From contig OZ251518.1 in assembly GCA_965242965.1 (NCBI GenBank), forward strand, positions 371,680-435,679: a DNA stretch of 64,000 nt. The letters run 5' to 3'. This document shows positions 258 through 51,813 of the stretch, in pieces. The DNA comes from Candidatus Poribacteria bacterium. GTDB lineage: Bacteria > Poribacteria > WGA-4E > WGA-3G. Position 1 is the stretch's first letter. Each line of letters starts with the position of its first letter. The position numbers and the translations under genes were made by a program. The notes beneath the pieces were generated by a model that did no database searches, was not told the origin of the DNA, and saw nothing but the letters and a program-made list of their open reading frames with translations.

Positions 258-800
258 GCGGCGAAAATCCCCCTTTCACCGTAGGGCGAGGGCCTGTCCC
301 TCGCCATGCCTCGGTCTACCGAACGTTCGCGGGGGACAGGCCCCCGCGCTACGGAAAAAAACGCCTCCCTGTCACCGTAGGGCGAGGGCCTGTCCCTCGC
401 CATGCCTCGGTCTACCGAACGATCGCGGGGGCCTGTCCCCCGCGCTACGGTAAAAAACGGTCCTTGAGGCTCTGTAGGTCAGGATCGCCTGATCCTGACC
501 TGTTTGTGATCAGGCGATCACAAACTACAGATGGGGAAACACACATCGGGACGATGAGATCGCGGGGGACAGGCCCCCGCACTACGATAAAAAAACGCCT
601 TCCCTTCACGTAGGGCGAGGGCCTGTCCCTCGCCATGCCTCGGTCTACCGAACGATCGCGGGGGACAGGCCCCCGCACTACGATAAAAAAACGGGGCTTG
701 AGCCATCGCGGGGGACAGGCCCCCGCGCTACGGGAACATCGAGACCGGGAGGTCTCGCCTACCGGAAATTGAGCCCCGAGGTCTCGCCTACCGGACACAT
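258..800. repeat. Cluster of small palindromic repeats (REP/MITE-like): family 1 (GCGrGGG-ACAGG-CCCyCGC hairpins flanked by CCGTAG/CTACGG), family 2 (about 60-bp CTGTAG...CTACAG double hairpin at 470-535), family 3 (GAGACCGGGAGGTCTC(G/T)CCTAC at 735-800)
   Basis: Direct reading: repeated stem-loops with a conserved ACAGG/CCTGT loop. ORFs 224..613, 445..798 and 518..706 are translations of these repeats. Confidence 0.85.
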
Positions 801-848
801 CGGAATTATGAAAACCCTCAGATTAATATGATACCACAAACGCAAATT

Positions 849-3800
849 TCATGCAAATTTGATAAACGCCGCGCTGCAAATGACCTTGGGAGGGACACGG
901 ACGGACTGAATAGGTGGCACCTCGTCGCTTGCCAACGCCGACATATTGTAGCGGTGATAGAGGGTTTTCAACGCCGTTAACAACTCTTCGCCCGTGAGTT
1001 CGGCGCGATAGAGGCGGCTGATTTCGCGTTTGAGACGTTCTGTTAAGCGGCCGCGGAACGCTCGTTCAAGCGTCCCTATCGCGCGCTCTTCCGAGGTGCT
1101 GGCCAGCATCCTTAACTCCCGCAAAATGTATCGTTGCGCGCGGGACAACGTCTGTTTTGGAAAGGCGTTTCGCGTCCGACAGACTTCCGCTGCAGACGCT
1201 TTTTGGACTTGGGTGACGCGGGCGTTGTGATGGGCCGGAAGCGGTTTGCCTTGCAATTCGGCATCGCACTGGAGCAAGCGAAGGATTTCGGCAACATCGG
1301 TAGTCCGTTCAACGCCGTTTTCATCAAGCAGGACAAGCCGTCTTTGCTGTTCCTGTTCCCCGCGACAGCAGACGTAAGTGCCTTCTACTTCGGCGGGGAT
1401 GCCGGTGCGAATGCCATCTCTTAACTCGGCGATGCGCTGATATTCCGCTGGGTTTTGCCGTCTCAATTGCCGCAGCAACTCTTCCGCCTCACTTAATCCG
1501 AAGCCCGGTTCTTCGGTTTCTTCTTCCAAGAGGCTGAGTTGTTCGCCGTTCTGTTCATAAATGGCATACATCGCTTTTTCGTTGAGTTGCTCGGTGTTGT
1601 CAAGGATTGCCGCGTCTTCACCGATGGTATCGTGGATTTCCTGAATGCGGCATTGGAGTTTCTCGCGTAGCCCGAGGTTGCGTTCAATTCCCAATTCCGG
1701 CAGGAAATTGAACCCGTGGATTTCGTCAAATTGACTGCCAATCCTATCAATGCGGCCGAAGCGTTGGATTAAGCGCACCGGATTCCAGTGTAAATCGTAG
1801 TTGATGAGCATGCCGCAATCTTGCAGGTTCAATCCCTCGGCGAGGACATCTGTGGCGATGAGCGTCTCTATCTCGGTTTCATCCGACTTCAAGCGATGTT
1901 GATTGGCGTTCGGTGCGAACCGCTCGACGACGCGCCGCTTCCTATCGCTGCCGTGGCTATGGATAACCTCCGTATTCGCTGTGTGCAGGTTTCGGTAGAG
2001 ATAGTTTGCAGTATCAATATATTGTGTGAAGATGAGCCGTTTTTTGCCCTGCAGCGATGGCGATGCCAGCAACGCTTTCAACTTCTGAAGTTTCGCATCC
2101 TGCGCAGGCGTGATATGCTGAACCTTCTCGAAGATCTGGTTTAGAATACCGATGTCGTTCTGAATCGCCGCGCGAAGTTCAGGGACGTTGAAGTCACGGA
2201 TGTCGTATTGCGCGGAGGCTTCGCGGCGTGCTTCCAGAAACTGTGCAATGTCCCGTTCTTCCGGGCTGATGTCGGTTTCATCAGAAGTGCTCGCTTCATA
2301 GAGGATTTTCTGGGCATCGTCACCGGCTGGCACGATCCCATTTTCAAGCGCGCGGAGGAAATCGACGTGGACGTTATAGAACCGGGAGATAGTTGTCTTG
2401 AAGGCGTAAACACTGGATTCAAACCGTTTGAAGAGCAGAATACGCATGAGGCCCCGCAGGTTTCTACCCGCGCTCTGCAAATCCTGATACGGCGGGACAT
2501 TCTGACTCTCCTCCTTCACATAGTGCCAGAGGCCATACCGTGCATAAGTCAACTGCGCAGCGGTATCCGATTTACCGAGGTAATCGCGAATCTGTGCATA
2601 GAGCCCCTGATAGGTATCTTCAATGCTGTATTCAACCGTCTTGAGGGTGCGCTTCGGAAAGAACTGCTTGGTATCGCCGACGCGGACATAGGCGCGGCGT
2701 TCGCGGTTCAGGTAATCGGTGAATTGCGTTGCATCTACGGGTTCATCTGTCTCGGCATCGTAACCGTACCAACGCAAGATGTGGTTTCGCGTTCGGCGGA
2801 TGAGAATGTGTTGTAAAAGCGTCGGGAGGCTCCGTTCCCCGTTCTCAATCAAGCGGAAGTATTCGCGAAGATTTGGCGCGTCCACCGGCAACTGCGTTTC
2901 GTCGTTGAGATGGAAAAGTTTGAGTTGGTGGTAGATATCCCACGCGCTTTTATTGCGCGGTGTCGCTGTGAGGAAGCAGCACTTCTTATCGCCTGTTGTG
3001 AGGAATTCCTGCAAGACGCGGTAGCGTTGCGTAGTGGCATTTCGGAAGTTGTGGCTTTCGTCAACGAGGACAAAATCGCAGTGTCGATAGCGAATATCTT
3101 CAAAGAGCAATTCCCGCGCGTTTTCTTCCCCGCTACTTAAAAGCCCGGTGGAGAGGATTTGCGCGCCGAGGCGGTAGAGGACGTTATAGGATTCCCACAT
3201 GGACATAAGCGCGGGGGGACAGAGGATGAGCGGACGCGCCTGTTCAACTTGTTCAAAGTGCTTGACAATCGCCGAACCGATGTAACTTTTGCCGAGCCCG
3301 ACGACATCGGAGATGAAGACACCGCCGTATGCGTCAATAATCCGAATGGCTTGGGAAACGGCTACCTGCTGAAAATCCGCGAGTTGCGCTGTCAATTCGT
3401 CTGCCGGTGCGATGCGGCTCTCATCCGTTTCTACCCTATCTTTTACCAATTCGTAGAGCGTCTTCATGTAGATGTCATAAGGACGAACAAGCGCGAGGGC
3501 CCAGGAGGTTTGCATCTCGTCCATCAACGCCTTGTCAAAATCCTCTGCTTCGTCCCATAACGCGTCAAACCAGTCGCGGAGTTGCACCTGATTGGCGTTG
3601 CCGTGCACGACGACGTTCAATTCGGTGTTGCTGGTTAACCCTGCCAAGGTAAGATTCGATGAGCCGACGATGGAGATGCCGGATTCATATCCCGCGTTTT
3701 TGCCATAATCGAAAATATACGCCTTGGCGTGGAAACGCTCCTTCGTGTAAACCCTGACTTTCAGTTGTCCGCTAGCAATCATCTCCACGAGAGTTTTGAT

Positions 3801-4160
3801 GAGTTGCGCCGAGTCATCTGTCTGCGGCATGAATTCCATGCAGGCGCGGAGGTTTTGCGCTGTGTCACCGACGCGTGCCTTGCGTTCAACGCCGCGTGAA
3901 TAGCGGCGCGCCGACTGAATCTCGCCTACAGATGCCAATTGTCGATATCCTTCGGCGAGCTGCTCAATCGTCTCGCGTGTACTCGTATTCCCGATGAGGA
4001 GACGGAGCTCGGTGACGTTTTGCAGTGCTTCCGCGATGCCGGTAAAGCCGGTGAGGAAAAAATATCCGACAGCGAAGCGGGCGCGCTCTGTCTCCTCTAA
4101 CATGAGAGTGACGTTGTCGATGAGTTTTTCGGTGCGATTGTCGATAATGTCTTGTGGCAT
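849..4160 (-). CDS. PLD-family nuclease domain fused to an SNF2/SF2 helicase (1103 aa)
   Basis: N-terminal PLD HxK(x4)D(x6)GSxN motif (FHAKAYIFDYG...GSSNLT). Helicase motifs I VGLGKSY, II LVDESHNF, III LTATPRN, V/VI LIATDVLAEGLNL and QRFGRIDRIGS. The ATG lies 10 nt after the stop of the upstream repeat-protein gene, suggesting translational coupling. Confidence 0.8.
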   Translation of the reverse strand: MPQDIIDNRTEKLIDNVTLMLEETERARFAVGYFFLTGFTGIAEALQNVTELRLLIGNTSTRETIEQLAEGYRQLASVGEIQSARRYSRGVERKARVGDTAQNLRACMEFMPQTDDSAQLIKTLVEMIASGQLKVRVYTKERFHAKAYIFDYGKNAGYESGISIVGSSNLTLAGLTSNTELNVVVHGNANQVQLRDWFDALWDEAEDFDKALMDEMQTSWALALVRPYDIYMKTLYELVKDRVETDESRIAPADELTAQLADFQQVAVSQAIRIIDAYGGVFISDVVGLGKSYIGSAIVKHFEQVEQARPLILCPPALMSMWESYNVLYRLGAQILSTGLLSSGEENARELLFEDIRYRHCDFVLVDESHNFRNATTQRYRVLQEFLTTGDKKCCFLTATPRNKSAWDIYHQLKLFHLNDETQLPVDAPNLREYFRLIENGERSLPTLLQHILIRRTRNHILRWYGYDAETDEPVDATQFTDYLNRERRAYVRVGDTKQFFPKRTLKTVEYSIEDTYQGLYAQIRDYLGKSDTAAQLTYARYGLWHYVKEESQNVPPYQDLQSAGRNLRGLMRILLFKRFESSVYAFKTTISRFYNVHVDFLRALENGIVPAGDDAQKILYEASTSDETDISPEERDIAQFLEARREASAQYDIRDFNVPELRAAIQNDIGILNQIFEKVQHITPAQDAKLQKLKALLASPSLQGKKRLIFTQYIDTANYLYRNLHTANTEVIHSHGSDRKRRVVERFAPNANQHRLKSDETEIETLIATDVLAEGLNLQDCGMLINYDLHWNPVRLIQRFGRIDRIGSQFDEIHGFNFLPELGIERNLGLREKLQCRIQEIHDTIGEDAAILDNTEQLNEKAMYAIYEQNGEQLSLLEEETEEPGFGLSEAEELLRQLRRQNPAEYQRIAELRDGIRTGIPAEVEGTYVCCRGEQEQQRRLVLLDENGVERTTDVAEILRLLQCDAELQGKPLPAHHNARVTQVQKASAAEVCRTRNAFPKQTLSRAQRYILRELRMLASTSEERAIGTLERAFRGRLTERLKREISRLYRAELTGEELLTALKTLYHRYNMSALASDEVPPIQSVRVPPKVICSAAFIKFA

Positions 4161-4170
4161 AGAACCTGCC

Positions 4171-6299
4171 TTATTTCAGGAGCTCTAATAGTGCATTTAT
4201 ACCTTTTACGCCGAGCACAGACAAAACTGTTGCAAAAGCGATGCTGACAATTCCGCCAAGGACGATCTTCCAGGGAGTCAGCGCGCCCTTCAATGCCTCA
4301 ACGGATTTTTCAGTGTTCACCAACTTTTCGTTCATATTGTCTAGTTGCACATCCCGTTTTGCGTCGCGTTCGGCACTAGCGGCGAGATGAGCTTCTGTCT
4401 TGGCTTGGAATTTCCCAATCTGCCGGAGGGACTCGTCAATGCTGCCTAAGCGTGCATCGCGTGCAGTGTCGCGTTCCGCACTGGCGGCGAGGAGTGCTTC
4501 TGTCTTGGCTTGGAATTCGCCAATCTGCCGGAGGGATTCGTCAATGCTGCCTAAGCGTGCATCGCGTGCAGTGTCGCGTTCCGCACCGGCGTTGAGGAGT
4601 GCTTCTGTCTTGGCTTGGAATTTCCCAATCTGCCGGAGGGATTCGTCAATGTTGCCTAAGCGTGCATCGCGTGCAGTGTCGCGTTCCGCACCGGCGTTGA
4701 GGAGTGCCTCTGTTTTCGCCTGGAATTTCGCGATGTCATCTAAGCGCGCGTCCCGTTCGGCATCGCGCGCTGCACTGGCATTGAGGAGTGCCTCTGTTTT
4801 CGCTTGGAATTCCCCAATCTGTTGGAATAACTCCCCGAGGTGTTCCAAGCGTGCATCGTGTGCAGCGTCGCGTTCCGCACCGGCGTTGAGGAGTGCCTCT
4901 GTTTTCGCTTGGAATTTCGCGATGTCGTCTAAGCGTGCATCCCATTCCGCGCCGCGTTCTGCACTAGCGGTGAGGAGTGCCTCTGTCTTCGTTTGGAATT
5001 CGCCAATCTGTTGGAACAACCCCTCAAGGTGTTTCAAACGTGCATCGCGCTCGGTATCGCGTTCGGCACTGGCGGTGAGGAGTGCTTCTGTCTTGGCTTG
5101 GAATTCGCCAATCTGCCGGAGGGACTCGTCAATGCGGACGAAGTGTGCATCGCGTTCGGCATCGCGTTCGGCACTGGCGGCGAGATGGGCCTCTGTCTTG
5201 GCTTGGAATTTCGCGATGTCCTCTAAGCGTGCATCCCATTCCGCGCCGCGTGCTGCACTAGCGTTGAGGAGTGCCTCGGTCTTGGTTTGGAATTCGCCAA
5301 TCTGTTGGAACAACCCCTCAAGGTGTTTCAAACGGGCATCGCGCTCGGTATCGCGTTCGGCACTGGCGTGAGGAGTGCTTCTGTCTTTGCTTGGAATTCC
5401 CCAATCTGCCGGAGGGACTCGTCAATGCGACCGAAGTGTGCATCGCGTGCAGCCTCGCGTTCTGCACTCGCGGCGAGATGGGCCTCTGTTTTCGCTTGGA
5501 ATTTCGCGATGTCATCTAAGCGTGCATCCCATTCCGCGCCGCGTGCTGCACTAGCGTTGAGGAGTGCCTCTGTCTTGGCTTGGAATTTCGCGATGTCATC
5601 TAAGCGTGCATCCCGTGCAGCGTCGCGTTCGGCACTGGCGTTGAGGAGTGCCTCGGTCCTGGTTTGGAATTCCCCAATCTGTTGGAACAACCCCTCAAGG
5701 TGTTCCACTCGGGCATCGCGTTCGGTGTCGCGCGCTGCACTGGCGGCGAGATGGGCCTCTGTCTTCACTTGGAATTCTCCGATTTGGCGGAGGGACTCGT
5801 CAATGCGACCGAAGTGTGCATCGCGTTCGGTGTCGCGCGCTGCACTGGCGTTGAGGAGTGCCTCAGTCTTGGTTTGAAATTCGCCAATCTGTTGGAACAA
5901 CCCCTCAAGGTGTTCCACTCGGGCATCGCGTTCGGTGTCGCGCGCTGCACTAGCGGTGAGATGAGCCTCTGTCTGCTCTTGAAACGCCGCTATCCGCTTG
6001 AACAATTCCTCAAGACTATCTAACCGCGTATCGCGTTTGGCATCTAATGCCTCAACTGCAGTCAATCGTGCATGCGTTTGGGTCTGGAGTTCTACAACGC
6101 GTTGGAGCAATTCCTCAGTGCCGTCCAGTCGTGCGTCGCGCGCTGCGTCGCGCTCAGCACTGGCAACGAGATACGCATCTCTTTTGACATCCAGTTCAGC
6201 ACTACGTTCTTGTATCTTCTCGATCCTCTCCAACCGAGGAATGCTTTCGTGACGTGCCGGCTCCGAAGCATTTTTAGGTTGATTATCGGTAGTTTTCAT
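4171..6299 (-). CDS. Tail-anchored coiled-coil protein made of about 17 tandem 35-aa (105-bp) repeats (unit ~RDARLGSIDESLRQIGEFQAKTEALLNASAERDTA). The frame is broken once near 5330-5375 (ORFs 5328..6299 and 4171..5331).
   Basis: 105-bp periodicity is visible in the DNA (e.g. 4441 vs 4546). C-terminal hydrophobic helix WKIVLGGIVSIAFATVLSVLGV. RBS AAGGAGAAACC before the ATG at 6299. One G is missing in the unit at about 5371-5376 relative to other units (cactggcgtgagg vs cactggcggtgagg). Confidence 0.6.
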
Positions 6300-6351
6300 C
6301 GGTTTCTCCTTGCAAATTTATTGTTAAGTATAAGTTTACCATACTTCAATA

Positions 6352-6388
6352 GGTTTGCGCAAGGATTTTTTTACAATCGATGCACCGC
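6352..6388. repeat. 37-bp direct repeat (ggtttgcgcaaggatttttttacaatcgatgcaccgc), left copy. The right copy at 6841..6877 overlaps the 3' end of the Uma2 remnant.
   Basis: Exact 37-bp identity read directly. The two copies bracket the 450-bp REP/MITE cluster. Confidence 0.8.
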
Positions 6389-6475
6389 ACGCGTGTTTCG
6401 CCTGTAATCAAATTAGGGTGTTTCATAAATCCGTGTAGGAGAAACCTCCAGGTCCTGATATCGGCCGCGCAAGCC

Positions 6476-6838
6476 AACGCTCGCGGGGGACAGGCCCCCG
6501 CGCTACGAAAAAAACTTCTCTTAGGTCCGTAGGACCTTAATGTCTATAGCACGCGCGTCTGTGAAGAACCCTAAGGTCCTTTAGGTCCTTAATAGATTTT
6601 GCCTTACCGCGTGGTTTTGATTAAGGACCTAAAGGACCTTGAAAAGGGACCTGCACGTTTTTCTATAGACATATAGGACCTAAAGGACCTAAAACGCGAT
6701 TCTTGATGATGGAGATCGCGGGGGACAGGCCCCCGCGCTACGGGAACATCGAGACCAGGAGGTCTCTCCTACCGGGGAGTCGAGACCGGGAGGGCGCGCC
6801 TACGGAGAGAAATCGAGACCGGGAGGTCTCTCCTACCG
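6476..6838. repeat. REP/MITE cluster: family 1, family 3 (x3), and copy 1 of a composite ~190-bp MITE-like element (6520..6700) with TAGGTCCTTAATGTCTATAG-type terminal inverted repeats and internal AAGGACCTAAAGGACCTT palindromes
   Basis: Direct reading. The same composite element recurs at 29090..29280 and 43105..43295. Confidence 0.8.
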
Positions 6839-6859
6839 GCGGTTTGCGCAAGGATTTTT

Positions 6860-7168
6860 TTACAATCGATGCACCGCGACGAACTCCGGCGTGGCTCCCT
6901 CTTCCCAAACGGCAGACGTCCGCCGGTCTTTTTTGCCAACACCGAAAATAACGAATACGTCAGGGGCAACCGAACGCCTGTTTTCGGGGGTGCCGTAATA
7001 GATGAGCAAATTTCCGGACACATACACATCGGGCGCGTGCCGGAAGTGGTGCTCCAACGTCTGAATAAGGGACATCATTACTCTTCGGTGTTTATCGGTT
7101 TCTGCCATAGGTTTTCCATCTGATTCGGGTAGGGTGAGTGTCGGCGCAGAGCGTATTTGTTGCAACAT
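6860..7168 (-). pseudogene. Uma2-family (DUF820) putative endonuclease, truncated remnant (102 aa; ends where the conserved E-V-L-SP segment should begin)
   Basis: Motifs DGKPMAE...H, LLIYY, APDVFVIFGV, DRRTSAVWEEG, PEFVAV are typical of Uma2/DUF820. The stop lies inside the 37-bp direct repeat. Confidence 0.55.
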
Positions 7169-7276
7169 CGTTCCATCTCCTTAGGTGAAGAAATGCGCGC
7201 ATCCCGCGCAGCATCATTACGATTCATCAGATAGTATACCACATTTTCCTGAAAAATCAAACCTTTTCTTTCGGTT

Positions 7277-7465
7277 TCAACTCCGCGCCTTCTTAAGCCT
7301 AGTTTCAACGAGATTGATAACCGCCTCGTAAACGCCATCACGCTCGCCTTGCGTCAATTCCAAGATGTCAAAGATGACGTTGTCAATCGCGATGCGCGCC
7401 GGTGAAGGCGATAAAACGTCCCATTCTTCGGATGCGAGGAGGGATGCATTTACCCCCCCCCTCAA
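7277..7465 (-). CDS. Probable displaced C-terminal segment of the adjacent methyltransferase (62-aa ORF in an alternate frame, beginning inside the G9 tract)
   Basis: Overlaps the MTase ORF by 83 nt in another frame. Its peptide (…DNVIFDILELTQGERDGVYEAVINLVETRLKKA) looks protein-like, whereas the MTase tail after the tract (KCIPPRIRRMGRFIAFTGAHRD) does not. Confidence 0.4.
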   Translation of the reverse strand: MRGGVNASLLASEEWDVLSPSPARIAIDNVIFDILELTQGERDGVYEAVINLVETRLKKARS

Positions 7466-10400
7466 AATTCATGTCTGTTAAGTTAGGGTTAACACATCGT
7501 AGCTCTCCCAAATCCGAGGTTTGGAGTTCTAACTCCCCATATCCTAGGTTTGAGCGACCGTTCACGTTCACCATCAACTGGAAGAAAGTAGAATTGAGGG
7601 AGAAACAGAGAGGTATCCTCAACTCAAGTGCGCATTGGAGTTCCATAAACTTGCCAGTCACATAACACCCCTCACTGGCATACAATGTTTTTGCCGTTGA
7701 ACGCATCCGGTGCGCAAAACTCATATACGGAGGCGGGCGTTTGCCCACATCATACCATCGCCGTCTAGATCGGATGCTCGGCCGCTGAGGCAGTTTCTGG
7801 CTTTCACCCGATTCAATGTATGCCAACGCAGCGGTGCCTCTTAAGGCTTCTCTCTCCTTTTGACACAGAAAGAGTTGATGTGGTGATTGTTCGGGGCGAA
7901 TCAACAGGCTCTCAGTGACTCTCCTGTCGTTGACAATCGGGTGTAAAAACTCTGGCTCAATATGCCACGCCGAAATCGTCTCCGCATCAAGGATGAAAAA
8001 CTGGTTTGCCCCGCTCATGATTCCTCGCCGAATCTGAGCGATGTCGCCGACACGGACGAGTTTATCCGAGCCTTTTTCTAGTAATGTCCAATAGATGTCG
8101 GGAGCGCGCAGATACTTCGCGCCCCATTTGTTTCCGGTATACTTCGTCTTTGCATCCATTCCGGCGGCTAAAAGTGCATCCTGCGAGAGAAGGTGAATTC
8201 GATATTCAGGCAGAGCATTCCGCTGGATTTCGGTTTCGATTTCGTAAAAGATGACAGGATCCAAAATAGCCTCAAACGGTTCGGTAAAGTTAACAAACCG
8301 CACAATGTCTTGCAAACCTGATGCGCTATCTCTAACCGGGGCGGAGATGAGACAAATAGCAGTGTTGATATTTACGGCTTTGAAGGAACGTCGTGCCGCG
8401 TTGTCCAAAACCAGTTTGAGATGACACCGCTTAAGGAGGAATTCCTGCAAATCTTTGCCGAAGTCCGCATCTAACCACGATCTGGATGTGATAGTGCAGA
8501 AGGTTCCTTTGGGATTTAGCAACGAGAGTCCGTGAAAGTAGAAGTAGACGTAGAGATCGCTGTTGCCATCTAGTTTATGCTTCACGGCAGACGCGGGGTT
8601 TTCCTTCGTATCCTTCTCCGGTTGATACCCGAAGAATGCAGGGAACGCCTGATAAACGGAACGCGCCAACTTGGCTTTATACGCCTTCGTGTTAGCGGGT
8701 GTAACCGCGTCTCGGGCTAGCGTCGGGTCTGTGAGTTTTTTCGTTGAAACGTAAGGCGGGTTTTCTATCACGATGTCAAAACCACCATACTGTTTGAAAA
8801 TCTCAACGAAGGCAATGTCCCACACGAAAGGTGGAACTGCATCTGACGTAAGGGCATGCTGGGCACGTTGGAGGTTGTTGAGATTCGCCTGTTGAAGTGC
8901 CAACTCCTGTTGCTTTTGCCGAGTTGCAAGATCTAATTGCGCTGCCTGGGGTTTCTCAATCCCGTCAAGCGTCAGTTGTTCAGCCGGATCTTCAAGCCAT
9001 TCCTGTAAACCTGCAATGCCTTCCAAAATTTGGCTTTCCTGCGACTGCAGTGTCTCCCGAAAGAGCAAGTTCTCGGCGCGTTGCACATCCGCTTTCTCAC
9101 GATATTTCCGCTCACGTTCGTTGTGATAAAACTTCAGTTTCTCTGTCTGGTGGAATACGATTTTGCGCGAGATGTCAGTCGGCACGCCGCTGCCCAACGC
9201 GCGCGTCTGCGCGAGGTTCATCCCACCGATGTCCTGCACCAGACTATCGCCGTGACGAATGTTAAACGAAAAATCAGGCAGCAAGGGCTCCTCGCGAATC
9301 TGCAGTTCCGCGGTGGAAATCTCTGCCTCAATGATGAGCGCGAGCCAGAGGCGTAACTCGGCAACTTTGCATGCCCACGGCATCACGTCTACGCCGTAGA
9401 GATTCTTGCCGATAATCGCCTTGCGGCGTTCAAACCTTGAGGTAACAGATGCACCGAGGTGCCGTGCGGCGCGTTCCCCCAGGTCATCGAGAATATGGAG
9501 CATGCCGACGAGAAACGAACCGCTGCCACACGCCGGATCCAACACCGTGAGACGGTTCAGATGCGTCGCGATATCACCCCACTGCGCGGCGAGGTGGGCA
9601 TCGGCATCTTCCTTCTCTGTTTCATCGAACGTAAAGAGTGCGGCGTAAAATTGATGCTTATGCGCCTCACCGATGTGATTTGCGAGGTTATCTACGAGCG
9701 CGAGACGGCACATCATATCTATCTCGATGCGCGGCGTGTAGAAGATGCCGGCATCGCCGCGTTCATCGGTTTCAGCGGAGACACTGACGAGACTCTCGTA
9801 GACTTTGCCGATCATCTCGGGGTCTACGGCGACTTCCTGTTCCAGCGGGGTATCCTCGGCGATGGTGAAGTTATATCCCTCGAAGAACTGGAAGATGTCG
9901 CGCCATAAATCATCGGGAATCGTGGTGGCATACTCGGTATCCCATTCGTTTTCTCGGAATAAGCCGCCGTTGAGATAGGGCGCGTGCTGAAGCGTTTCGC
10001 GGATGTTGTCAGGAAAGTAACGATATCCGCCGTGAAACTTCTGATTGAAAGCGGCGAAGAAGAGGACGTTGAGCCACTTTGCCACGAAGGTATCCGCTGG
10101 TTGCGTTGCGTTTTGATACGCCTGCCAAAACGTGTGCAGGAAATCGGTGTCGTTTCCGAGCCACCGTTTTCGCTGGATGAAATAGAGGAAGAGGCAGCGG
10201 CTGAGGAATTGTTGGGCTGCATCGTGCGCCCACTTTTTATCAGCGGTTTGCGTTTCCAACTCGGTTTGGAGGTTTCTGAAGACGCGCTGATAGTCGGCGA
10301 AAAACTGCGCTGTCACGGCATCGACATCGAAGGCGGCATCGTGCTGTTTGGTAATTTGCAGAGGTGTCAGCAGCTCTGGATTTGGGAAGAGGCTCTCCTG

Positions 10401-10886
10401 TTGGCCGTCAATGGCTATCGTCGCCAGATCGAGCATTGCGATACGTTCGGCGGCGGTGCGGAGTTTTTCATCGGGCGCGACAGTGATGCGCCGGAATCGG
10501 TGGCGTGCCTTGTGTTTCTTGCTTGCCTCGCGGACGAGTGTGACGTTGACGAAGTGCCAGTGGTCTTGCGCAATATTGCTAAAGATGTAGAGCGCGTGCG
10601 GGAAGCGCGTCTGCAAGTGCGCGATGACGCGGCGTTCGGCGGTCTTGCGGGGTGTTTCGGTATTGAGGCGCGCGTATATGATGTGAAAGTCGTTATCCCT
10701 ACCCCCGGCGGCAAAGCGTCGCGGTGCCTCGGCGAGGCAGTCGGCGATGGCTTCCGGGATGTTCTCAATCGGTTCATCGATGCGGTGATAATTGAGTTCT
10801 ACCCAAAAGAGTTCGCGCAGGGGTTCGATGCCGCGGAGGTTTTGTAGCAGAGTTAAGATGCGTTCGGTGTTTTCGGGTGTTGGCAT
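7383..10886 (-). CDS. Large gamma-class N6-adenine DNA methyltransferase, 1167 aa (Type IIG / BREX PglX / DISARM DrmMI-like). The true C-terminus is probably in the 7277..7465 frame.
   Basis: Motif X AGIFYTPR, motif I VLDPACGSGSFLV, motif IV IENPPY. A long N-terminal region precedes the MTase core. The C(9) run at 7453..7461 sits at the frame junction. Confidence 0.75.
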   Translation of the reverse strand: MPTPENTERILTLLQNLRGIEPLRELFWVELNYHRIDEPIENIPEAIADCLAEAPRRFAAGGRDNDFHIIYARLNTETPRKTAERRVIAHLQTRFPHALYIFSNIAQDHWHFVNVTLVREASKKHKARHRFRRITVAPDEKLRTAAERIAMLDLATIAIDGQQESLFPNPELLTPLQITKQHDAAFDVDAVTAQFFADYQRVFRNLQTELETQTADKKWAHDAAQQFLSRCLFLYFIQRKRWLGNDTDFLHTFWQAYQNATQPADTFVAKWLNVLFFAAFNQKFHGGYRYFPDNIRETLQHAPYLNGGLFRENEWDTEYATTIPDDLWRDIFQFFEGYNFTIAEDTPLEQEVAVDPEMIGKVYESLVSVSAETDERGDAGIFYTPRIEIDMMCRLALVDNLANHIGEAHKHQFYAALFTFDETEKEDADAHLAAQWGDIATHLNRLTVLDPACGSGSFLVGMLHILDDLGERAARHLGASVTSRFERRKAIIGKNLYGVDVMPWACKVAELRLWLALIIEAEISTAELQIREEPLLPDFSFNIRHGDSLVQDIGGMNLAQTRALGSGVPTDISRKIVFHQTEKLKFYHNERERKYREKADVQRAENLLFRETLQSQESQILEGIAGLQEWLEDPAEQLTLDGIEKPQAAQLDLATRQKQQELALQQANLNNLQRAQHALTSDAVPPFVWDIAFVEIFKQYGGFDIVIENPPYVSTKKLTDPTLARDAVTPANTKAYKAKLARSVYQAFPAFFGYQPEKDTKENPASAVKHKLDGNSDLYVYFYFHGLSLLNPKGTFCTITSRSWLDADFGKDLQEFLLKRCHLKLVLDNAARRSFKAVNINTAICLISAPVRDSASGLQDIVRFVNFTEPFEAILDPVIFYEIETEIQRNALPEYRIHLLSQDALLAAGMDAKTKYTGNKWGAKYLRAPDIYWTLLEKGSDKLVRVGDIAQIRRGIMSGANQFFILDAETISAWHIEPEFLHPIVNDRRVTESLLIRPEQSPHQLFLCQKEREALRGTAALAYIESGESQKLPQRPSIRSRRRWYDVGKRPPPYMSFAHRMRSTAKTLYASEGCYVTGKFMELQCALELRIPLCFSLNSTFFQLMVNVNGRSNLGYGELELQTSDLGELRCVNPNLTDMNFEGGGKCIPPRIRRMGRFIAFTGAHRD

Positions 10887-13561: not shown

Positions 13562-13603
13562 CAATTTTCCTCCTTAGTTAATCAGTGTGTTTCATAAATC
13601 GTT

Positions 13604-13790
13604 CAACGGCGCGGGGATAGGCTCCCGCGCTACGATAAAAAACGCCATCCCTCACCGTAGGGCGAGGGCCTGTCCCTCGCCATGCGTTTTGCTGTCAGAC
13701 CGCCTCACCCCTGTAGGTCAGGATCGCCTGATCCTGACCTGTTTGTGATTAGGCGATCACAAACTACAGAGGTGGGCCCGATGCGCGCCT
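13604..13790. repeat. REP cluster (family 1 plus family 2 double hairpin 13706..13767)
   Basis: Direct reading. Confidence 0.85.
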
Positions 13791-13834
13791 CCAAGGGAGA
13801 TAACTACCGAAACGGAGTTAGGAAACACCCCCAG

Positions 13835-14563
13835 TTAATCAGTATGTGCGAATTGCGGTGCCGTTTCCAATTCCGATGCTTTGGTTTGCGTGTTGACATC
13901 TTCACATCCCGGTGGTTGTGCGCCGCGTATCCAGGGTTTCGGGCGTTTTTCCCATGGCAGTTTCGTGAAGCCGAGCCATCGGCAGAGGCGCGGGATATGT
14001 CCAGGGCGCGCAATACGGAGATGCTCAATCTCCGGCACGATGATAGGCACTACTTCCCAGCGTCCATCGGGATAGGCGGCATTTTCCCGGTGTCGCGCGA
14101 TGGGGTTAGGTTTCGGTATGTCGGTGTTTTTGAGCACCAAGGTTTCTATGTGTCGTTCGATGGCGAGTGCTGCTTTTGCATGGACTTCCATTGCGGTTTT
14201 GCCGTGTGCGGTGCAGCCGGGCAAATCTGGAACGCTGAGCCGGTAATGCCTCCGCCGTTTGCGGGTTATCAAGACCGGATAGTGGCGTAGTTCGGGCATC
14301 GTTATCGTCACGGTGTCCCACTGCAGTGCATCGGCATATCCCGGGTCGTTCTGATGGTAGGCGATGTCCTGGGGTTCAGGAATCGGATCATCTTCAAGCA
14401 TCATGCTTTCAAGATGTCCTTCGATTGCTTCCACGGCGCGCGTCAGCACCTGCTCTACGGTGTCTGCTGCAGTAATGCACCCTGGCAAATCGGGGACGAC
14501 GATGCCGTAGATGCTGCCCGGGTCTTTGAAAATCGCAACAGGATATTGCATAAAAGTTTTCAT
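13835..14563 (-). CDS. hicB: HicB-family antitoxin with two tandem HicB/UPF0150 domains (copy 1)
   Basis: YPVAIFKDPGSIYGIVVPDLPGC..A.TVEQVLTRAVEAIEGHLE repeated twice within the protein. Three paralogous copies in tandem. Confidence 0.75.
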   Translation of the reverse strand: MKTFMQYPVAIFKDPGSIYGIVVPDLPGCITAADTVEQVLTRAVEAIEGHLESMMLEDDPIPEPQDIAYHQNDPGYADALQWDTVTITMPELRHYPVLITRKRRRHYRLSVPDLPGCTAHGKTAMEVHAKAALAIERHIETLVLKNTDIPKPNPIARHRENAAYPDGRWEVVPIIVPEIEHLRIARPGHIPRLCRWLGFTKLPWEKRPKPWIRGAQPPGCEDVNTQTKASELETAPQFAHTD

Positions 14564-14875: not shown

Positions 14876-15589
14876 TTAAGCCTTGGCGTGTTCCGGTAGC
14901 ATCCCTTCGTTTTCGGCGGTGCTGTCGGTTTCCGGTGGTTGTGCGCCGCGTATCCAGGGTTTCGGGCGTTTCTCCCATGGCAGTTTCGTGAACCCGAGCC
15001 ATCGACAGAGGCGCGGGATACGGCCAGGGCGCGCAATACGGAGATGCTCGATCTCCGGCACGATGATAGGCACCACTTCCCAATGTCCATCGGGACATGC
15101 AGCATTTCCTCGGTGTTGCGCGATGGGGTTGGGTTTCGGTATGTCCCTATTTTTGAGTATTCGTGCTTCCATGTGTCGTTCAATGGCGAGTGCTGCTTTT
15201 GCATGGACTTCCATTGCGGTTTTGCCACGCGCGGTACAGTCGGGCAAATCTGGGACGCTGAGCCGATAGTGCTTCCGCCGTTTGCGGGTTATCAAGACAG
15301 GATAGTGGCGCAGTTCTGGAAACGCTACCGTTACCTCCTCCCACTGCCCCCCAGCATATTCTGGATATGCCGGATTGTTCTGATGGTAGGCGATGTCCTT
15401 AGGTTCGGGAATCGCATCTCCATCAATTAACATGCCGCCGAGATGACATTTAATCGCTTCCACGGCCTGGGTCAGAACGTCCTCGACTGTATCGCCCCAG
15501 GTATAACACCCAGGTAAGTCTGGAACAATTACGCCGTAGTCGCTATCCGGGTCTTTGTGGATGACAATCGGATACCTAAAGATTTTCAT
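14876..15589 (-). CDS. hicB: HicB-family antitoxin, tandem-domain (copy 2)
   Basis: Paralog of 13835..14563. Confidence 0.75.
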   Translation of the reverse strand: MKIFRYPIVIHKDPDSDYGVIVPDLPGCYTWGDTVEDVLTQAVEAIKCHLGGMLIDGDAIPEPKDIAYHQNNPAYPEYAGGQWEEVTVAFPELRHYPVLITRKRRKHYRLSVPDLPDCTARGKTAMEVHAKAALAIERHMEARILKNRDIPKPNPIAQHRGNAACPDGHWEVVPIIVPEIEHLRIARPGRIPRLCRWLGFTKLPWEKRPKPWIRGAQPPETDSTAENEGMLPEHAKA

Positions 15590-20149: not shown

Positions 20150-20620
20150 CACACCCGTAGGAGAGACCTCCTGGTCTTGATGTTCCCGTAGCGCGGGGGC
20201 CTGTCCCCCGCGAGCGTTGGATTGCACCGACGATGGCGAGGGACAGGCCCTCGCCCTACGGTGAGGGAGGGGCGTTTTTTTCGTAGCGCGGGGGCCTGTC
20301 CCCCGCGATCTCCATCGTCACGATGTGTGTTTCCCCCTCTGTAGTTCGGGATCGCCTGATCCCGAACGGGTCAGGATCAGGCGATCCTGACCTACAGAGG
20401 GGATGCGGTCTGACTCCAAAACGCATGGCGAGGGACAAGTTTTCCCACCGCCCCACGGCGAAAGGGACCGTTTTTTACCGTAGCGCGGGGGCCTGTCCCC
20501 CGCGATCGTTGCATGGCGAGGGACAGGCCCTCGCCCTACGGTGAGGGGAGGGTTTTTGTCGTAGCGCGGGGGCCGGAGGCAATCGAGACCAGGAGGTCTC
20601 TCCTACCGGGGAGTGCCGCT
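20150..20620. repeat. REP cluster (families 1, 2, 3)
   Basis: Direct reading. Confidence 0.85.
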
Positions 20621-31372: not shown

Positions 31373-31398
31373 AAACGCCCCGCGGGGCGTTTTTTTAA
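31373..31398 (+). terminator. Rho-independent terminator AAAAAACGCCCCGC-GGGGCGTTTTTTT (bidirectional)
   Basis: Perfect GC stem flanked by A-run and T-run, 45 nt after the lipoprotein stop. Confidence 0.75.
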
Positions 31399-31444
31399 TC
31401 AGGGTGTTTCATAATTCCGTTTCGGTATTTATCCCACCGTGGAG

Positions 31445-31805
31445 GGCAGGCGAATATCGCAAGGCATCGGGCCCACCTCTGTAGTTCGAGATCGGGCGAT
31501 CTCGAACGGGTCAAGATCAGGCGATCTTGACCTACAGGGGTGAGGCAGTCTGACACCAACACGCATGGCGAGGGACAGGCCCTCGCCCTACGATGACGTG
31601 CCGTTTTTTCGCCGTAGCGCGGGGGCCTGTCCCCCGCGATCGTTGGATTGCGCATGCGCGGACGATGGCGAGGGAAACCCGCTCGGATGCGCGTGTGGCA
31701 TCCGAGGGCCCTCGCGCTACGATGAGGGGGGGCTTTCTGCCGCCGCTGCCCCGATAGGCGCGCCGCCCTACCGCATCGAGACCGGGAGGTCTCTCCTACC
31801 CGGAG
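31445..31805. repeat. REP cluster (families 2, 1, 3)
   Basis: Direct reading. Confidence 0.85.
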
Positions 31806-42884: not shown

Positions 42885-43300
42885 TAGGAGAGACCTCCCG
42901 GTCTCGATGCCGCCCAGTAGGAGAGCCCTCTGGTCTCGATGTTCCCGTAGCGCGGGAGCCCTCGGATGCCATCCGCGCATCCGAGCGGGTTTCCCCCGCG
43001 AGCACCATCGTCAAGATCTGGTCTCAATGTTCCCGTAGCGCGGGGGCCCTCGGATGCCATCCGCGCATCCGAGCGGGTTTCCCCCGCGAGCACCATCGTC
43101 AAGATGCTGTCTTAGGTCCTTTAGGTCCTACATGTCTATAGAAAAACGTGTCGGCCCTAGTCAAGGTCCTTTAGGTCCTTAATAACACACGCGCGGCCCT
43201 GGTAAAATCTATTAAGGACCTAAAGGACCTTAGCGTTCTTCGCGGGTGCGCGTGCTATAGACATTAAGGACCTAAAGGACCTAAAAGACGTTTTTTTCAT
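42885..43300. repeat. REP/MITE cluster including copy 3 of the ~190-bp composite MITE-like element (43105..43295)
   Basis: Direct reading. Confidence 0.85.
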
Positions 43301-48624: not shown

Positions 48625-48654
48625 TTGCAATGCATTGCGAATTTAAGGTATAAT
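48625..48654 (+). promoter_or_regulatory. Sigma70 promoter TTGCAA-N18-TATAAT. The ATG at 48661 lies 7 nt downstream, so the mRNA is leaderless or near-leaderless.
   Basis: Consensus -10. No RBS before the ATG. Confidence 0.5.
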
Positions 48655-48660
48655 CACATT

Positions 48661-51600
48661 ATGACAACACTTAACCTGAAACCAACTCACAAAGCGATAA
48701 CCGCCTATTATGCCGCACTCAACAGGTATCAACAGCACGGGGTAACCCACGAAACCGCCGTGCGCGCCGCCTTTCAAGCACTCCTCGAAGCCTGCACGCG
48801 ACAACTTGACTGGACGCTGATTTGTGAACAGACACTACGCCTCCCCGATAGAAATCCTATCCGCCTCGATGGCGCGCTGCTCGACGAACATAGTTTGCCC
48901 CGCGGCACCTGGGAGGCAAAAGGCGTTAAAGGAGCTCTCCGCGCCGAAATCAATAAGAAATTCGACGCAGGCTATCCCCAGGACAACATCCTCTTCCAAA
49001 CACCGGAACGCGCCATTCTCTATCAAAACGGACGCGAAGTGATGGACGCAGACATCACCGCACCGGAAACGCTTGTCACGGTGTTGCAGACGTTCTTTGC
49101 CTACGAGCGCGCGAACGCCGCCGAATGGCGCGCCGCCGTCGCACGCTTCAAAGAACTTGTCCCCGAACTCGGGGCGGAGGCGGCGAACCTTATCCAAACG
49201 CAGCACGAAACAAACGCGCAATTCCGCGCCGATTTCACCGCGTTTCACGAACTCTGCAAAACCGCCATCAACCCGAATCTCTCGGCGGCGGCTGTCCAAG
49301 AGATGCTCGTCCAACATCTTCTCACCGAACGGATGTTCCGCACTGTCTTCGAGGATCCGGATTTCGCCCACCGCAATATCATCGCCCGCGAAATTGAAAA
49401 AGTCCTCAAGGGAACACTGGCGAACTTCCTCAACCGCGGCCAACTGCTCCAAAAACTCACGCCGTTCTATCGCGAAATCGAACGCGAGGCAGCTACACTC
49501 GTCGATTTCTCGCAGAAACAGCACTTCCTCAACACCGTTTACGAGCAGTTCTTCCAAGGCTTCTCCGTGAAGCAGGCGGATACGCACGGCATCGTTTACA
49601 CCCCGCAGCCTATCGTCGATTTTATGGCGAACAGCGTCCAGCATATCCTCCAAACCGAATTCGACCACGCGCTGGCAGATGAAGGCGTTCACATCATCGA
49701 TGCGTTCGTCGGCACCGGCAACTTCATCGTCCGACTCATGCGCGACATCCCCAAGACGAAACTGGAGGCGAAATACCGAAACGAACTCTGGTGCAACGAA
49801 GTGCTGTTATTGCCTTATTACATCGCCACGCTCAACATCGAGCACGAATTCTACGCCGCCACCGGCACCTATCTGCCGTTTGAAGGCATCTCCCTCGTGG
49901 ATACGTTCGAGTTAGCGGAAGACCGGCAGTTGTCGCTCTTAACCGCTGAAAACACGGCGCGTGTGGCGAAGCAGCAAGCCTCGCCGATGTTCGTCGTCAT
50001 CGGAAATCCGCCCTATAACGCCGGGCAAATCAACGAAAACGATAACAACAAAAATCGGAATTATCCGACGCTGGAGGCGCGCGTGCGAGAAACCTATGCG
50101 AAAGACTCCACCGCAACGCTCAAAAATTCGCTCTATGACACTTACGTCAAGGCACTTCGTTGGGCTTCCGATAGGATTGGCAAACAGGGGATCGTCGCGC
50201 TCGTCACGAATAACAGTTTTCTTAGCGGCACCTCGTTTGATGGCATGCGGAAACACCTCGCTGAAGACTTTGATGCCATCTATGTCGTCGATTTGGGCGG
50301 CAATGCGCGGCGTGATAAACTTGTCGCTGATGCAAGCGTTTTTGGTATCCGCGTCGGGGTGAGTATTAATTTTTTCGTGAAAAACCCTTCCCGGCGATCG
50401 CGGGGGACAGGCCCCCGCGCTACGGTGCCTTCCGGTCTCGATGGGATCGCGGGGGACAGGCCCCCGCGCTACGGTAACGGGGAAAATTCCGCGCGCATCT
50501 TCTATTACCGCACCGATGACGCGTGGAACAAACACCAGAAATTCGATTTCTTGACGCAAACTGAACACGTTGGGAATGTGGACTGGCAAACGCTAGAACC
50601 CGATGCACGAAATACCTGGCTCACCGAAGGACTCAACCCTGAATTTTTGACGTTCATGCCGATAGGGAGCAAAACGGCAAAACGGGAAAAAAAGGAGCCC
50701 GCCGGGGTGATATTCCACCAGTTCAGCAACGGTTTGAAAACAAACCGGGATGCATGGGCTTACAACTTCAACCGCGATGCGCTCGCTGAAAACATGCAGC
50801 GCATGATAGGTGCCTATAACGCGCAGGTCTCCCAGTGGCGCGATAGGGACGACAACGCGGAGATAAGTGTTGACGATTTTGTCGATGCCGACTTGCGGAA
50901 AATCAAATGGAGTGGCGATTTGAAAACCGCTCTCAAAAAAGGGGTTTTCGCGGCGTTTTCCAATGAAAAATTGCGAACGTCTCTCTACCGTCCTTTCACC
51001 CGTTCTTTTCTGTTCTTCGACCGGCTCATGAATAACGGCACCTTTCTTCAGCCCTATATCTTCCCTACGCCGGAGACAGAAAAGGAAAATCTCGTTCTCT
51101 CTGCCGCGGGAACTGGGCATCGGACGGGATTTGGCTGTCTCGTCTCAAACGTCATTCCCAATGTAGATCTTGCCTATGAAAAAGGGCAGTGCTTCCCGTT
51201 CTACTTTTACGATGAAGATGGCACTAACCGCCGAGAAAACATCACCGATTGGGCATTGGAAAACTTCCGCAAGCACTATGGCGACGATACCATCACGAAA
51301 TGGAACATTTTCCACTACACCTACGGTATCTTGCATCATCCTGCGTATCGCGAACGTTACGCCGCTGATCTCAAGCGCGATTTACCGCATATCCCCTACG
51401 CCGACGATTTCTGGGCATTTGCAAACGCCGGCGCACGGTTAGCGGAACTTCATGTCAACTACGAGGCGCAGCCGGAGTATCCGCTCACGTTTGTCGAAGA
51501 TGCGACGCGGCAGTTGGATTTCCGCGTGGAAAAAATGAGGTTGTCCAAGGACAAGACCTCGCTTATCTATAACGAGTTTCTGACGTTGGAGGGGATTCCT

Positions 51601-51813
51601 GCGGCGGTGTTTTCGTATCGCTTGGGTCAGTATTCGGCGTTGGAGTGGGTGGTGAAGCAGTATCGTGTGAAGGCGGATGCGCGGAGTGGTATTGTGAACG
51701 ATCCGAACGATGCGTCGAATCCGCGTTATATCGTGGAGCTCATCGGTTCGGTGGTTACGGTGAGTTTGGAGACGTGTAAGATTGTTGGGGGTTTGCCATC
51801 GTTTCGTTCGTGA
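48661..51813 (+). CDS. Type IIG/IIL (MmeI-like) restriction-modification enzyme: N-terminal PD-ExK nuclease motif + gamma-class N6-adenine MTase + C-terminal TRD. Has an in-frame repeat insertion at 50395..50470.
   Basis: D76...E85-A-K87 (LLDEH...TWEAKG), comparable to MmeI D70/E80/K82. Motif X VYTPQ, motif I IIDAFVGTGNF, motif IV GNPPYNAGQ. Confidence 0.65.
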   Translation: MTTLNLKPTHKAITAYYAALNRYQQHGVTHETAVRAAFQALLEACTRQLDWTLICEQTLRLPDRNPIRLDGALLDEHSLPRGTWEAKGVKGALRAEINKKFDAGYPQDNILFQTPERAILYQNGREVMDADITAPETLVTVLQTFFAYERANAAEWRAAVARFKELVPELGAEAANLIQTQHETNAQFRADFTAFHELCKTAINPNLSAAAVQEMLVQHLLTERMFRTVFEDPDFAHRNIIAREIEKVLKGTLANFLNRGQLLQKLTPFYREIEREAATLVDFSQKQHFLNTVYEQFFQGFSVKQADTHGIVYTPQPIVDFMANSVQHILQTEFDHALADEGVHIIDAFVGTGNFIVRLMRDIPKTKLEAKYRNELWCNEVLLLPYYIATLNIEHEFYAATGTYLPFEGISLVDTFELAEDRQLSLLTAENTARVAKQQASPMFVVIGNPPYNAGQINENDNNKNRNYPTLEARVRETYAKDSTATLKNSLYDTYVKALRWASDRIGKQGIVALVTNNSFLSGTSFDGMRKHLAEDFDAIYVVDLGGNARRDKLVADASVFGIRVGVSINFFVKNPSRRSRGTGPRATVPSGLDGIAGDRPPRYGNGENSARIFYYRTDDAWNKHQKFDFLTQTEHVGNVDWQTLEPDARNTWLTEGLNPEFLTFMPIGSKTAKREKKEPAGVIFHQFSNGLKTNRDAWAYNFNRDALAENMQRMIGAYNAQVSQWRDRDDNAEISVDDFVDADLRKIKWSGDLKTALKKGVFAAFSNEKLRTSLYRPFTRSFLFFDRLMNNGTFLQPYIFPTPETEKENLVLSAAGTGHRTGFGCLVSNVIPNVDLAYEKGQCFPFYFYDEDGTNRRENITDWALENFRKHYGDDTITKWNIFHYTYGILHHPAYRERYAADLKRDLPHIPYADDFWAFANAGARLAELHVNYEAQPEYPLTFVEDATRQLDFRVEKMRLSKDKTSLIYNEFLTLEGIPAAVFSYRLGQYSALEWVVKQYRVKADARSGIVNDPNDASNPRYIVELIGSVVTVSLETCKIVGGLPSFRS
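50395..50470. repeat. Two family-1 hairpins (CGATCGCGGGGGACAGGCCCCCGCGCTACGG) inserted in-frame in the RM gene
   Basis: They encode ...RSRGTGPRATVPSGLDGIAGDRPPRYG... Confidence 0.8.

Follow-up and report, generated by a model that had tools for sequence, protein, structure and literature searches.

Gene organization of the locus

We analyzed a tandem-repeat gene carried by a 64,000-nucleotide (nt) stretch of DNA from Candidatus Poribacteria, an uncultivated sponge symbiont (OZ251518.1 of assembly GCA_965242965.1, forward strand, 371,680-435,679). The whole stretch is referred to as the window, and positions given below are window positions. The gene lies between a DNA methyltransferase gene and a helicase gene and encodes, once a single base is restored, a protein of 709 amino acids (aa). 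The protein begins with a hydrophilic N-terminus, continues as a predicted unbroken helix for about 600 residues, and closes with a conserved transmembrane helix. We describe the anatomy of this gene, its homologs, its position in the operon, the variation of its copy number, and the purifying selection acting on its units. A first-pass annotation, made from the sequence and a list of open reading frames (ORFs), had presented it as about 17 near-identical repeats interrupted by a single-base frame break. Related loci and contigs carry L numbers, matches from the phmmer search of representative proteins carry P numbers, and the units of the window array are designated W01 to W18. The features of the gene are the following.

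4171..6299, minus strand: whole repeat gene, stop codon included; 709-aa frame after one base is restored after 5368
6306..6311, minus strand: Shine-Dalgarno-like AAGGAG, read from the sequence, with a 6-nt spacer to the ATG at 6297-6299
6090..6299, minus strand: N-terminal 70 residues, hydrophilic and without signal peptide, leading into a degenerate first helical segment
4306..6089, minus strand: array of 18 units (W01-W18), 13 of 105 bp (35 aa) and 5 of 84 bp (28 aa)
5361..5373, minus strand: 1-bp deletion site in W08 (5293-5396); one G (coding-strand C) absent after 5368
5328..5330, minus strand: premature stop codon, 12 codons past the frame break
4174..4296, minus strand: conserved C-terminal module ALKGALTPWK-IVLGGIVSIAFATVLSVLGV-KGINALLELLK, from the alignment of the family
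4207..4266, minus strand: predicted transmembrane helix (tail anchor), single, 11 residues from the C-terminus

The gene runs on the minus strand (6299..4171), which corrects the orientation implied earlier. Its putative ribosome-binding site is strong, the region upstream is 96% identical to L001, and the N-terminal start MKTTDNQ... is common to the window, L001, L004, and L007. The first two of these related loci are short-read, short metagenome contigs from two independent samples, both extending into the helicase start, while L007 is a Poribacteria locus on a single contig of 5.0 Mb. Two plus-strand ORFs within the array (4400..5371 and 5287..5877) have neither start context nor homologs; they were rejected as antisense shadows because the minus-strand frame has the ribosome-binding site, conserved termini, and a ratio of nonsynonymous to synonymous polymorphism (pN/pS) below 1. 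Self-trained codon-usage scoring separated the sense and antisense frames poorly, and no conclusion rests on it. A scan of positions 4000-7500 for promoters and terminators came out near the shuffle expectation (3 promoter-like matches versus 1.6 expected; 8 terminator-like matches versus 4.6), and the terminator-like matches inside the array are the repeat sequence itself.

A tandem array of whole heptads with variable length

The units follow the consensus FQAKTEALLxASAERDxxRDARL(xxIDESLRQIGE / DDIAK), and all unit lengths are multiples of 21 bp, or one heptad, with 5 heptads in a 35-aa unit and 4 in a 28-aa unit. The unit map revises the first-pass description in several respects. The count is 18 rather than about 17; the 35-aa unit length stands for 13 of the 18 and fails for the other 5, which are 28 aa; and the supposedly strict 105-bp periodicity is broken by these 84-bp units as well as by a higher-order repeat of 294 bp (W07-W09 versus W10-W12, copies 94% identical). 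Overlapping arrays were called by Tandem Repeats Finder between 4363 and 6037, at periods of 105, 84, 189, 210, and 294 bp and with scores of up to 1294. Nor are the units near-identical at the DNA level, where the identity among 35-aa units averages 79% and ranges from 68 to 98%; among the 28-aa units it is 89%. The 35-aa units of the window show a pN/pS of 0.35 and the 28-aa units one of 0.21, values that indicate purifying selection on their amino-acid sequence.

The comparison of repeat number among strains that had been proposed gives 2 units in L001, 3 in L004, 18 in the window, and 21 in L007, all in the same slot, and thus establishes that array length varies. L001 and L004 are syntenic with the window, their flanks being 94 to 96% identical to it, and carry short alleles: that of L001 is intact and 117 aa long, and that of L004 is interrupted by an in-frame nonsense codon, its transmembrane end having been removed by a miniature inverted-repeat transposable element (MITE). 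The L007 ortholog is intact, 814 aa long, mixes 35- and 28-aa units, and keeps the same 10-nt gap to the helicase ATG as the window gene. The nearest relative lies within the same array for 16 of 17 window units and for 17 of 20 L007 units. Because units cluster by array in this way, the arrays have expanded or been homogenized independently, an outcome that recurrent unequal recombination would produce and that agrees with the earlier description of such arrays as recombination hot spots. Since the units are multiples of 3 bp, such copy-number changes alter length and not frame.

Tandem arrays often misassemble, and the two short-read contigs have far fewer units than the window; the length of the window array could therefore be an assembly artifact, whether collapsed, expanded, or chimeric. 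We consider this very improbable. The longest exact repeat within the window array is 68 bp, and the array is thus resolvable by ordinary reads or by k-mers longer than 68, while L007 carries a similar but longer and intact array on its 5-Mb contig; the first-pass worry about assembly collapse loses its force on these two points, and a collapse is unlikely. The short arrays themselves do not look like collapsed copies of the long one. L001 and L004, although from two independent samples, both carry a unit type (KSQARIV) and an N-terminal junction that set them apart, and their units are 72 to 77% identical to window units, well below the 94 to 96% of the flanks, which identifies them as different alleles.

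A rare family defined by its C-terminal module

An exhaustive phmmer search of 1.84 billion representative proteins returned 17 matches, of which five (P0001 to P0005) are true relatives with E-values from 3e-31 to 3e-9, indicating that the family is rare. P0001 (117 aa) has a matching N-terminus and a C-terminal module identical to that of the window protein, with only about two units in between, and P0003 (94 aa) is a truncated allele. P0002, P0004, and P0005 (209 to 236 aa) share the C-terminal module. Alignment of this module among P0001, P0002, P0004, and P0005 identified 17 invariant positions, which include P47, W48, and K49 just before the helix and G53, S57, A61, S65, and G68 within it. 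The resulting family motif, L-x-G-x-L-x-P-W-K-x2-L-G-x3-S-x3-A-x-V-x-S-x2-G-x-K-x3-A-L, lies at the very end of the protein and is present in the window protein, the C-terminus of which is 81% identical to L007 in tblastn. The window protein also shows the remainder of the family architecture, a hydrophilic N-terminus without signal peptide followed by a repeated helical region, seen as helices in the AlphaFold2 model.

The family is unnamed and unannotated, and its general architecture is familiar. Neither window ORF has a match in NCBIfam or PADLOC, and their Pfam matches all fall below the curated cut-offs; the relatives and the C-terminal 80 residues of the window protein likewise gave only sub-threshold matches in Pfam and PHROGs. 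A word-indexed protein search found nothing with the repaired 709-aa protein, and with a profile of the C-terminal module it recovered P0001 as its sole hit. An exact-sequence look-up placed the 323-aa window ORF and the helicase on no record. A genome-collection scan with the repeat protein and a metagenome scan with the C-terminal profile returned no relative, a metagenome scan with the helicase N-terminus returned 45 loci, none with a family member, and tblastn of P0002 against 50,697 phage records found no match. A literature search found no paper naming the methyltransferase and PLD-SNF2 pair or the repeat-protein family.

Several database matches were set aside as compositional. Tropomyosin, Clusterin, DUF6944, and other Pfam matches of the two ORFs and the L007 protein arise from summed repeat scores, and the L007 matches to DUF6944 and TRCF pass the cut-off only by such sums, with no individually significant stretch. 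The remaining phmmer matches, P0006 to P0017, resemble the window protein in repeat-level composition only and lack the C-terminal module; they include an ankyrin-repeat protein, P0008, proteins that combine 'AQARTE' repeats with unrelated domains at the C-terminus, and further repeat proteins. P0008 (L098, 8001..9521) is tail-anchored and has about nine 28-aa repeats with a DARLxxID motif as in the window units, in a different context: it adjoins a Mor-family regulator gene in a block that is mostly unannotated and includes products with Band_7 and WYL domains. Tail-anchored rods built from repeats may form a wider class that includes P0008.

Predicted structure and membrane anchor

Structure prediction had been suggested as a means to distinguish a coiled coil from a helical solenoid. 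The AlphaFold2 model of the 386-aa C-terminal ORF (mean predicted local distance difference test score, 74; predicted template modeling score [pTM], 0.22) contains two helices without interruption (2-148 and 156-350), one folded back on the other, and thus gives long helices and no solenoid within the limits of a monomer model. Rod-forming proteins modeled as monomers usually look like this back-folded helix pair, and a solenoid does not. A Foldseek search of the model against PDB found no match, as expected for a bare helical hairpin. The hydrophobic occupancy of register positions 0, 1, and 4 is 44%, 58%, and 40%, respectively, and hydrophobicity peaks most strongly at a period of 3.16, ahead of 3.5; a "coiled coil" would therefore be a tentative reading of the rod. 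If the helix is continuous and forms one rod, its length would be about 88 nm in the window, 104 nm in L007, and 8 nm in L001.

The invariant helix residues G53, S57, A61, and S65 lie on one face of the transmembrane helix because they are spaced four apart. This small-residue face, G-x3-S-x3-A-x3-S, may pack several copies together, and the protein would then oligomerize. Given the lack of a signal peptide and the C-terminal transmembrane helix, the rod is expected in the cytoplasm.

The host operon and its variable slot

The genes and other features around the repeat gene are the following.

849..4160, minus strand: PLD(HKD)-SNF2 helicase gene, downstream, intact, 1103 aa; its start lies 10 nt past the stop of the repeat gene
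7383..10886, minus strand: Eco57I/type IIG-like N6-adenine methyltransferase gene, upstream of the repeat gene
6860..7168, minus strand: truncated Uma2-family gene, profile positions 24-99 of 172, cut after about 97 residues
6460..6860, no strand assigned: mosaic of short dispersed repeats resembling repetitive extragenic palindromic (REP) elements or MITEs, replacing the 3' half of the Uma2 gene

The helicase matches the PADLOC candidate model C3a139 'HKD+Snf2' (E 1.8e-83), and the methyltransferase matches the PADLOC type IIG models (E 1e-50). The helicase stays far below the DISARM cut-off (NCBIfam DrmD, 141.7 versus 610 bits) and the methyltransferase far below the BREX cut-off (BREX-6 PglX, 75 versus 900 bits). 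The host operon is a C3a139-type pair with DISARM DrmD/DrmMI and BREX PglX as distant relatives, and the repeat gene stands outside the conserved pair. A scan of species-representative genomes with the helicase gave 46 loci. The closest helicases are those of Candidatus Poribacteria (90%, 83%, 73%, and 66 to 67% identity), followed by those of cyanobacteria, Chloroflexi, and WOR-3 (34 to 58%). The methyltransferase-helicase pair is kept in most of the 46 loci, across all four groups, and forms the conserved core of the related loci examined; the Poribacteria loci L007 to L011 and L052 contain the same two genes. Given the 10-nt gap, the repeat gene is probably cotranscribed with the helicase.

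The slot between the two genes varies widely in size and content. Among loci L012 to L097, between 0 and more than 4000 nt separate the methyltransferase stop from the helicase start. The cargo in cyanobacteria and Chloroflexi comprises PIN/VapBC-like pairs, XisH/XisI-like pairs, Fic-like genes, and other small genes. Among Poribacteria, L008 has no repeat gene and holds an intact 248-aa Uma2 gene in the slot (368..1114), at the place of the truncated copy in the window; the Uma2 family is a putative restriction endonuclease family. L011 and L052 hold an unrelated family of small coiled-coil and transmembrane genes. In L002/L003, P0002, 36% identical, is flanked by remnants of the pair, 98 aa from the C-terminus of the methyltransferase on one side and 148 aa from the N-terminus of the helicase on the other. 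We suggest that the repeat gene would be accessory cargo in the variable slot of a two-gene defense-type operon.

An alternative is that the rod is a working part of the methyltransferase/PLD-SNF2 defense operon, either as a membrane tether at a set distance or as a helicase-triggered, membrane-disrupting effector of abortive infection. The position, the orientation, and the 10-nt gap to the helicase start are equal in the window and L007, yet most loci with the pair have no such gene, and L009, L010, and L053 have essentially no spacer at all. The retention of P0002 between remnants of the same two genes could speak for a link with them, but the relative in L002 is intact where both flanking genes have decayed, and P0005 (L006) and P0004 (L005) were not found beside methyltransferase or helicase genes; P0005 adjoins NusB, and no remnant of the pair was detected around P0004 in its short contig. 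That other Poribacteria fill the slot with unrelated coiled-coil and transmembrane genes would count in favor of this alternative, whereas cyanobacteria and Chloroflexi hold toxin-antitoxin-like cargo there instead. The invariant small-residue face of the transmembrane helix suggests more than a passive anchor, and weak XhlA/hemolysin-like signals point the same way; against this, L008, L004, and the window have no intact copy of the gene, and no PADLOC model matches it. We regard a defense role of the rod as unlikely on this evidence. A version of it, in which the rod is a functional third operon component whose spacer or effector length is retuned by whole heptads alongside a poly-G switch in the methyltransferase, seems more doubtful still; if true, the operon would carry two independent hypermutable controls.

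The poly-G tract in question is a G9 run near the 3' end of the methyltransferase gene (C9 on the plus strand at 7453-7461), and the last 57 or so codons (ORF 7277..7465) are out of frame. It is the sole homopolymer of at least 7 bases inside any coding region of the window. The window, L007 (7238), and L010 (9747) have G9 and an out-of-frame end, L011 (7895) has G10 and an in-frame end, and the tract is retained across species whose methyltransferases are just 63 to 72% identical. The tract could be a conserved switch for phase variation or else a homopolymer that is systematically under-called. A type IIG enzyme of Campylobacter is described as having such a poly-G switch (PMC4889913).

Further observations concern the surroundings of the slot. 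L011 carries three tandem paralogs of the unrelated coiled-coil and transmembrane family (8176..9590, minus strand) with the short internal repeats QKQFDRQNN and IKADIATIK, and L052 carries the family at 9599..9949 (plus strand). L002 represents a whole locus in decay (4004..4300, 5152..5598, and 5617..6167) in which P0002 (236 aa) is intact, and past its helicase remnant lies a second family paralog with the transmembrane end out of frame. The REP/MITE-like repeats recur at at least 30 further intergenic sites in the window (e.g., 13578-13836, 31397-31634, 43080-43298, 20150-20620, and 48170-48600), and copies also terminate the metagenome contigs L001 and L004. The window contains a second large methyltransferase-type defense gene (48625..51813, plus strand) with Type ISP coupler, N6_Mtase, and Type_ISP_C specificity domains (E 9e-103); neither a helicase nor a nuclease domain was detected within that ORF. 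Two neighboring minus-strand genes, 13835..14563 and 14876..15589, encode products with two HicB-like antitoxin stretches each.

The frame break

As sequenced, the gene consists of two minus-strand ORFs, 5328..6299 (323 aa) and 4171..5331 (386 aa), and six-frame translation reveals one protein with a single change of frame. The coordinates of the two ORFs are exactly those first annotated, the gene is split by a single 1-bp deletion, and the two frames meet once; insertion of one G after 5368 yields the single 709-aa ORF. The string CACTGGCGTGAGG is unique, at 5361-5373, and the equivalent place in every other unit is one base longer. The missing G, which had been assigned to about 5371-5376, is one base in the sequence as assembled, and its place is 5368/5369. 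The exact full-length 14-mer cactggcggtgagg, which had been attributed to the other units in general, occurs in one other unit only (5067, W11), the rest carrying variants of the same length. Once the base is restored, W08 is 98.1% identical to W11.

The lost base sits in a GG dinucleotide, and no simple-sequence tract is found at the deletion site. On/off switching by slippage does not fit such a gene, since the 105- and 84-bp units are multiples of 3 bp, so that a change in copy number alters length and not frame, and the deletion falls outside simple-sequence tracts; the gene differs on both counts from a simple-sequence contingency gene. The same features bear on the idea that the cell makes use of the break, by programmed ribosomal frameshifting or as a reversible phase-variation switch. 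The neighboring methyltransferase gene has a homopolymer tract able to act as a switch, and the stop codon of the first ORF overlaps a TTG in the second frame, but neither a slippery heptamer nor a homopolymer is present at 5361-5373, and the L007 ortholog and the L001 allele are plain single ORFs. We judge a use of the break by the cell to be extremely improbable.

The choice is then between a real deletion and an error. We incline to the former, with the window copy most likely being a recently inactivated allele with a single lesion; an artifactual deletion is the less probable of the two, while far from negligible. A recent pseudogene is favored because decay is seen elsewhere in the same locus, and of a kind beyond miscalling: the Uma2 gene is cut by MITEs in the window, and the L004 allele combines its nonsense codon with a 3' deletion. 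Were the gene instead intact in the organism, with a true product of 709 aa, the missing base would be a base-calling, consensus, or polishing error within the repeats. This explanation, which we hold to be possible but the weaker one, draws on the lesion being single, with no further stops over 416 downstream codons, on the intact ortholog in L007, and on the near-identity of W08 to W11, which invites misplaced reads during polishing. In addition, a contig of at least 64 kb across dozens of dispersed repeats suggests a long-read assembly, in which 1-bp indels are the main error type, and the other frame break of the locus falls in the G9 homopolymer, a classic error site. The lost base in the repeat gene, however, lies in no long homopolymer, and no frame breaks were seen in some 25 further genes sampled across the window, several of them 570 to 1100 aa long, which have full-length domain matches. 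The frameshift should be checked against the reads before the gene is annotated as a pseudogene.

Comparison with known systems

One resemblance is to XhlA (PF10779 'haemolysin XhlA'; PHROG 1193/937), a membrane-associated lysis protein of the Bacillus PBSX prophage, which likewise combines a helical N-terminal region with one transmembrane helix at the C-terminus. Weak matches were seen in this region (P0001 to PF10779, E 0.35; P0002 to phrog_1193, E 7.8e-4; P0004 to phrog_937, E 0.044), the PHROGs matches of P0001 and P0004 lie at E 0.04 to 0.12, and the window C-terminus has none. The best PF10779 score, that of P0001, is 11.5 bits against a gathering threshold of 34.7, and the window ORFs and the C-terminal 80 residues are unmatched. 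XhlA is about 70 to 90 aa long and has no repeat array. The setting of the repeat gene is not that of a lysis cassette, as its neighbors are the methyltransferase, the Uma2 remnant, and the helicase, with no holin or endolysin nearby and no match in the phage records.

ElaB, YqjD, and YgaM (DUF883) of Escherichia coli are tail-anchored inner-membrane proteins with a cytoplasmic helical N-terminal part and no signal peptide, and their C-terminal transmembrane helix is rich in small residues and directly preceded by a Pro-Trp motif. The resemblance of the family to them is tentative. ElaB-type proteins are about 100 aa long and without tandem repeats, and DUF883 was not among the Pfam matches of any family member at an E limit of 10, where HMMER filters drop most matches above about 0.1.

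The length-variable coiled-coil stalks of streptococcal M proteins and of YadA, BadA, and similar trimeric autotransporter adhesins share with the repeat protein register-preserving tandem units, recombinational variation of copy number, and homogenization within the array. They are secreted, with signal peptides and cell-wall or beta-barrel anchors, whereas the repeat protein has no signal peptide and a C-terminal transmembrane helix. The helical "rulers" formed by the ZorA tail of Zorya and by Braun's lipoprotein Lpp are likewise long membrane-attached helices, and Zorya is moreover a defense system that includes the SNF2-type helicase/nuclease ZorD. The repeat protein has no MotA-like multipass domain, no PADLOC Zorya match, and a single C-terminal transmembrane helix only. 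Length has been proposed or shown to matter for ZorA and Lpp; for the repeat protein, the molecular-ruler role raised in the first-pass annotation would be speculative.

A proposed tail-anchored rod of stepwise variable length

Collectively, the account that we find somewhat better than an even proposition is that of a dispensable, oligomerizing, tail-anchored rod with a heptad-quantized length, the window copy of which was recently inactivated. The product would be a tail-anchored membrane protein composed of a hydrophilic N-terminus, a helix of about 600 residues, and one C-terminal transmembrane helix. Unequal recombination between units would shift the length of the rod stepwise, with the frame and the helical register surviving because each unit consists of whole codons and whole heptads.

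Several observations weigh against this account. The AlphaFold2 model is a single-sequence monomer with a pTM of 0.22, and the heptad signal is not clean, lacking a textbook a/d pattern. The placement beside the helicase, kept across diverged lineages, could reflect a functional link and not cargo. The unit affected by the deletion, W08, has a 98% identical twin in W11, and a consensus or polishing error could explain the deletion; the absence of a second lesion downstream of the break fits a very recent mutation and an error alike.

Length-variable tandem-repeat helical rods are well known from bacterial surfaces. To our knowledge, a tail-anchored and probably cytoplasmic rod whose unit number varies between 2 and 21 in close relatives, encoded inside a defense operon, has not been described before. 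If the length of the rod is functional, these alleles would provide a natural length series for testing membrane distance in defense or membrane biology. If it is without function, the locus would be a clean example of defense-island cargo that expands, homogenizes, and decays in an uncultivated symbiont.

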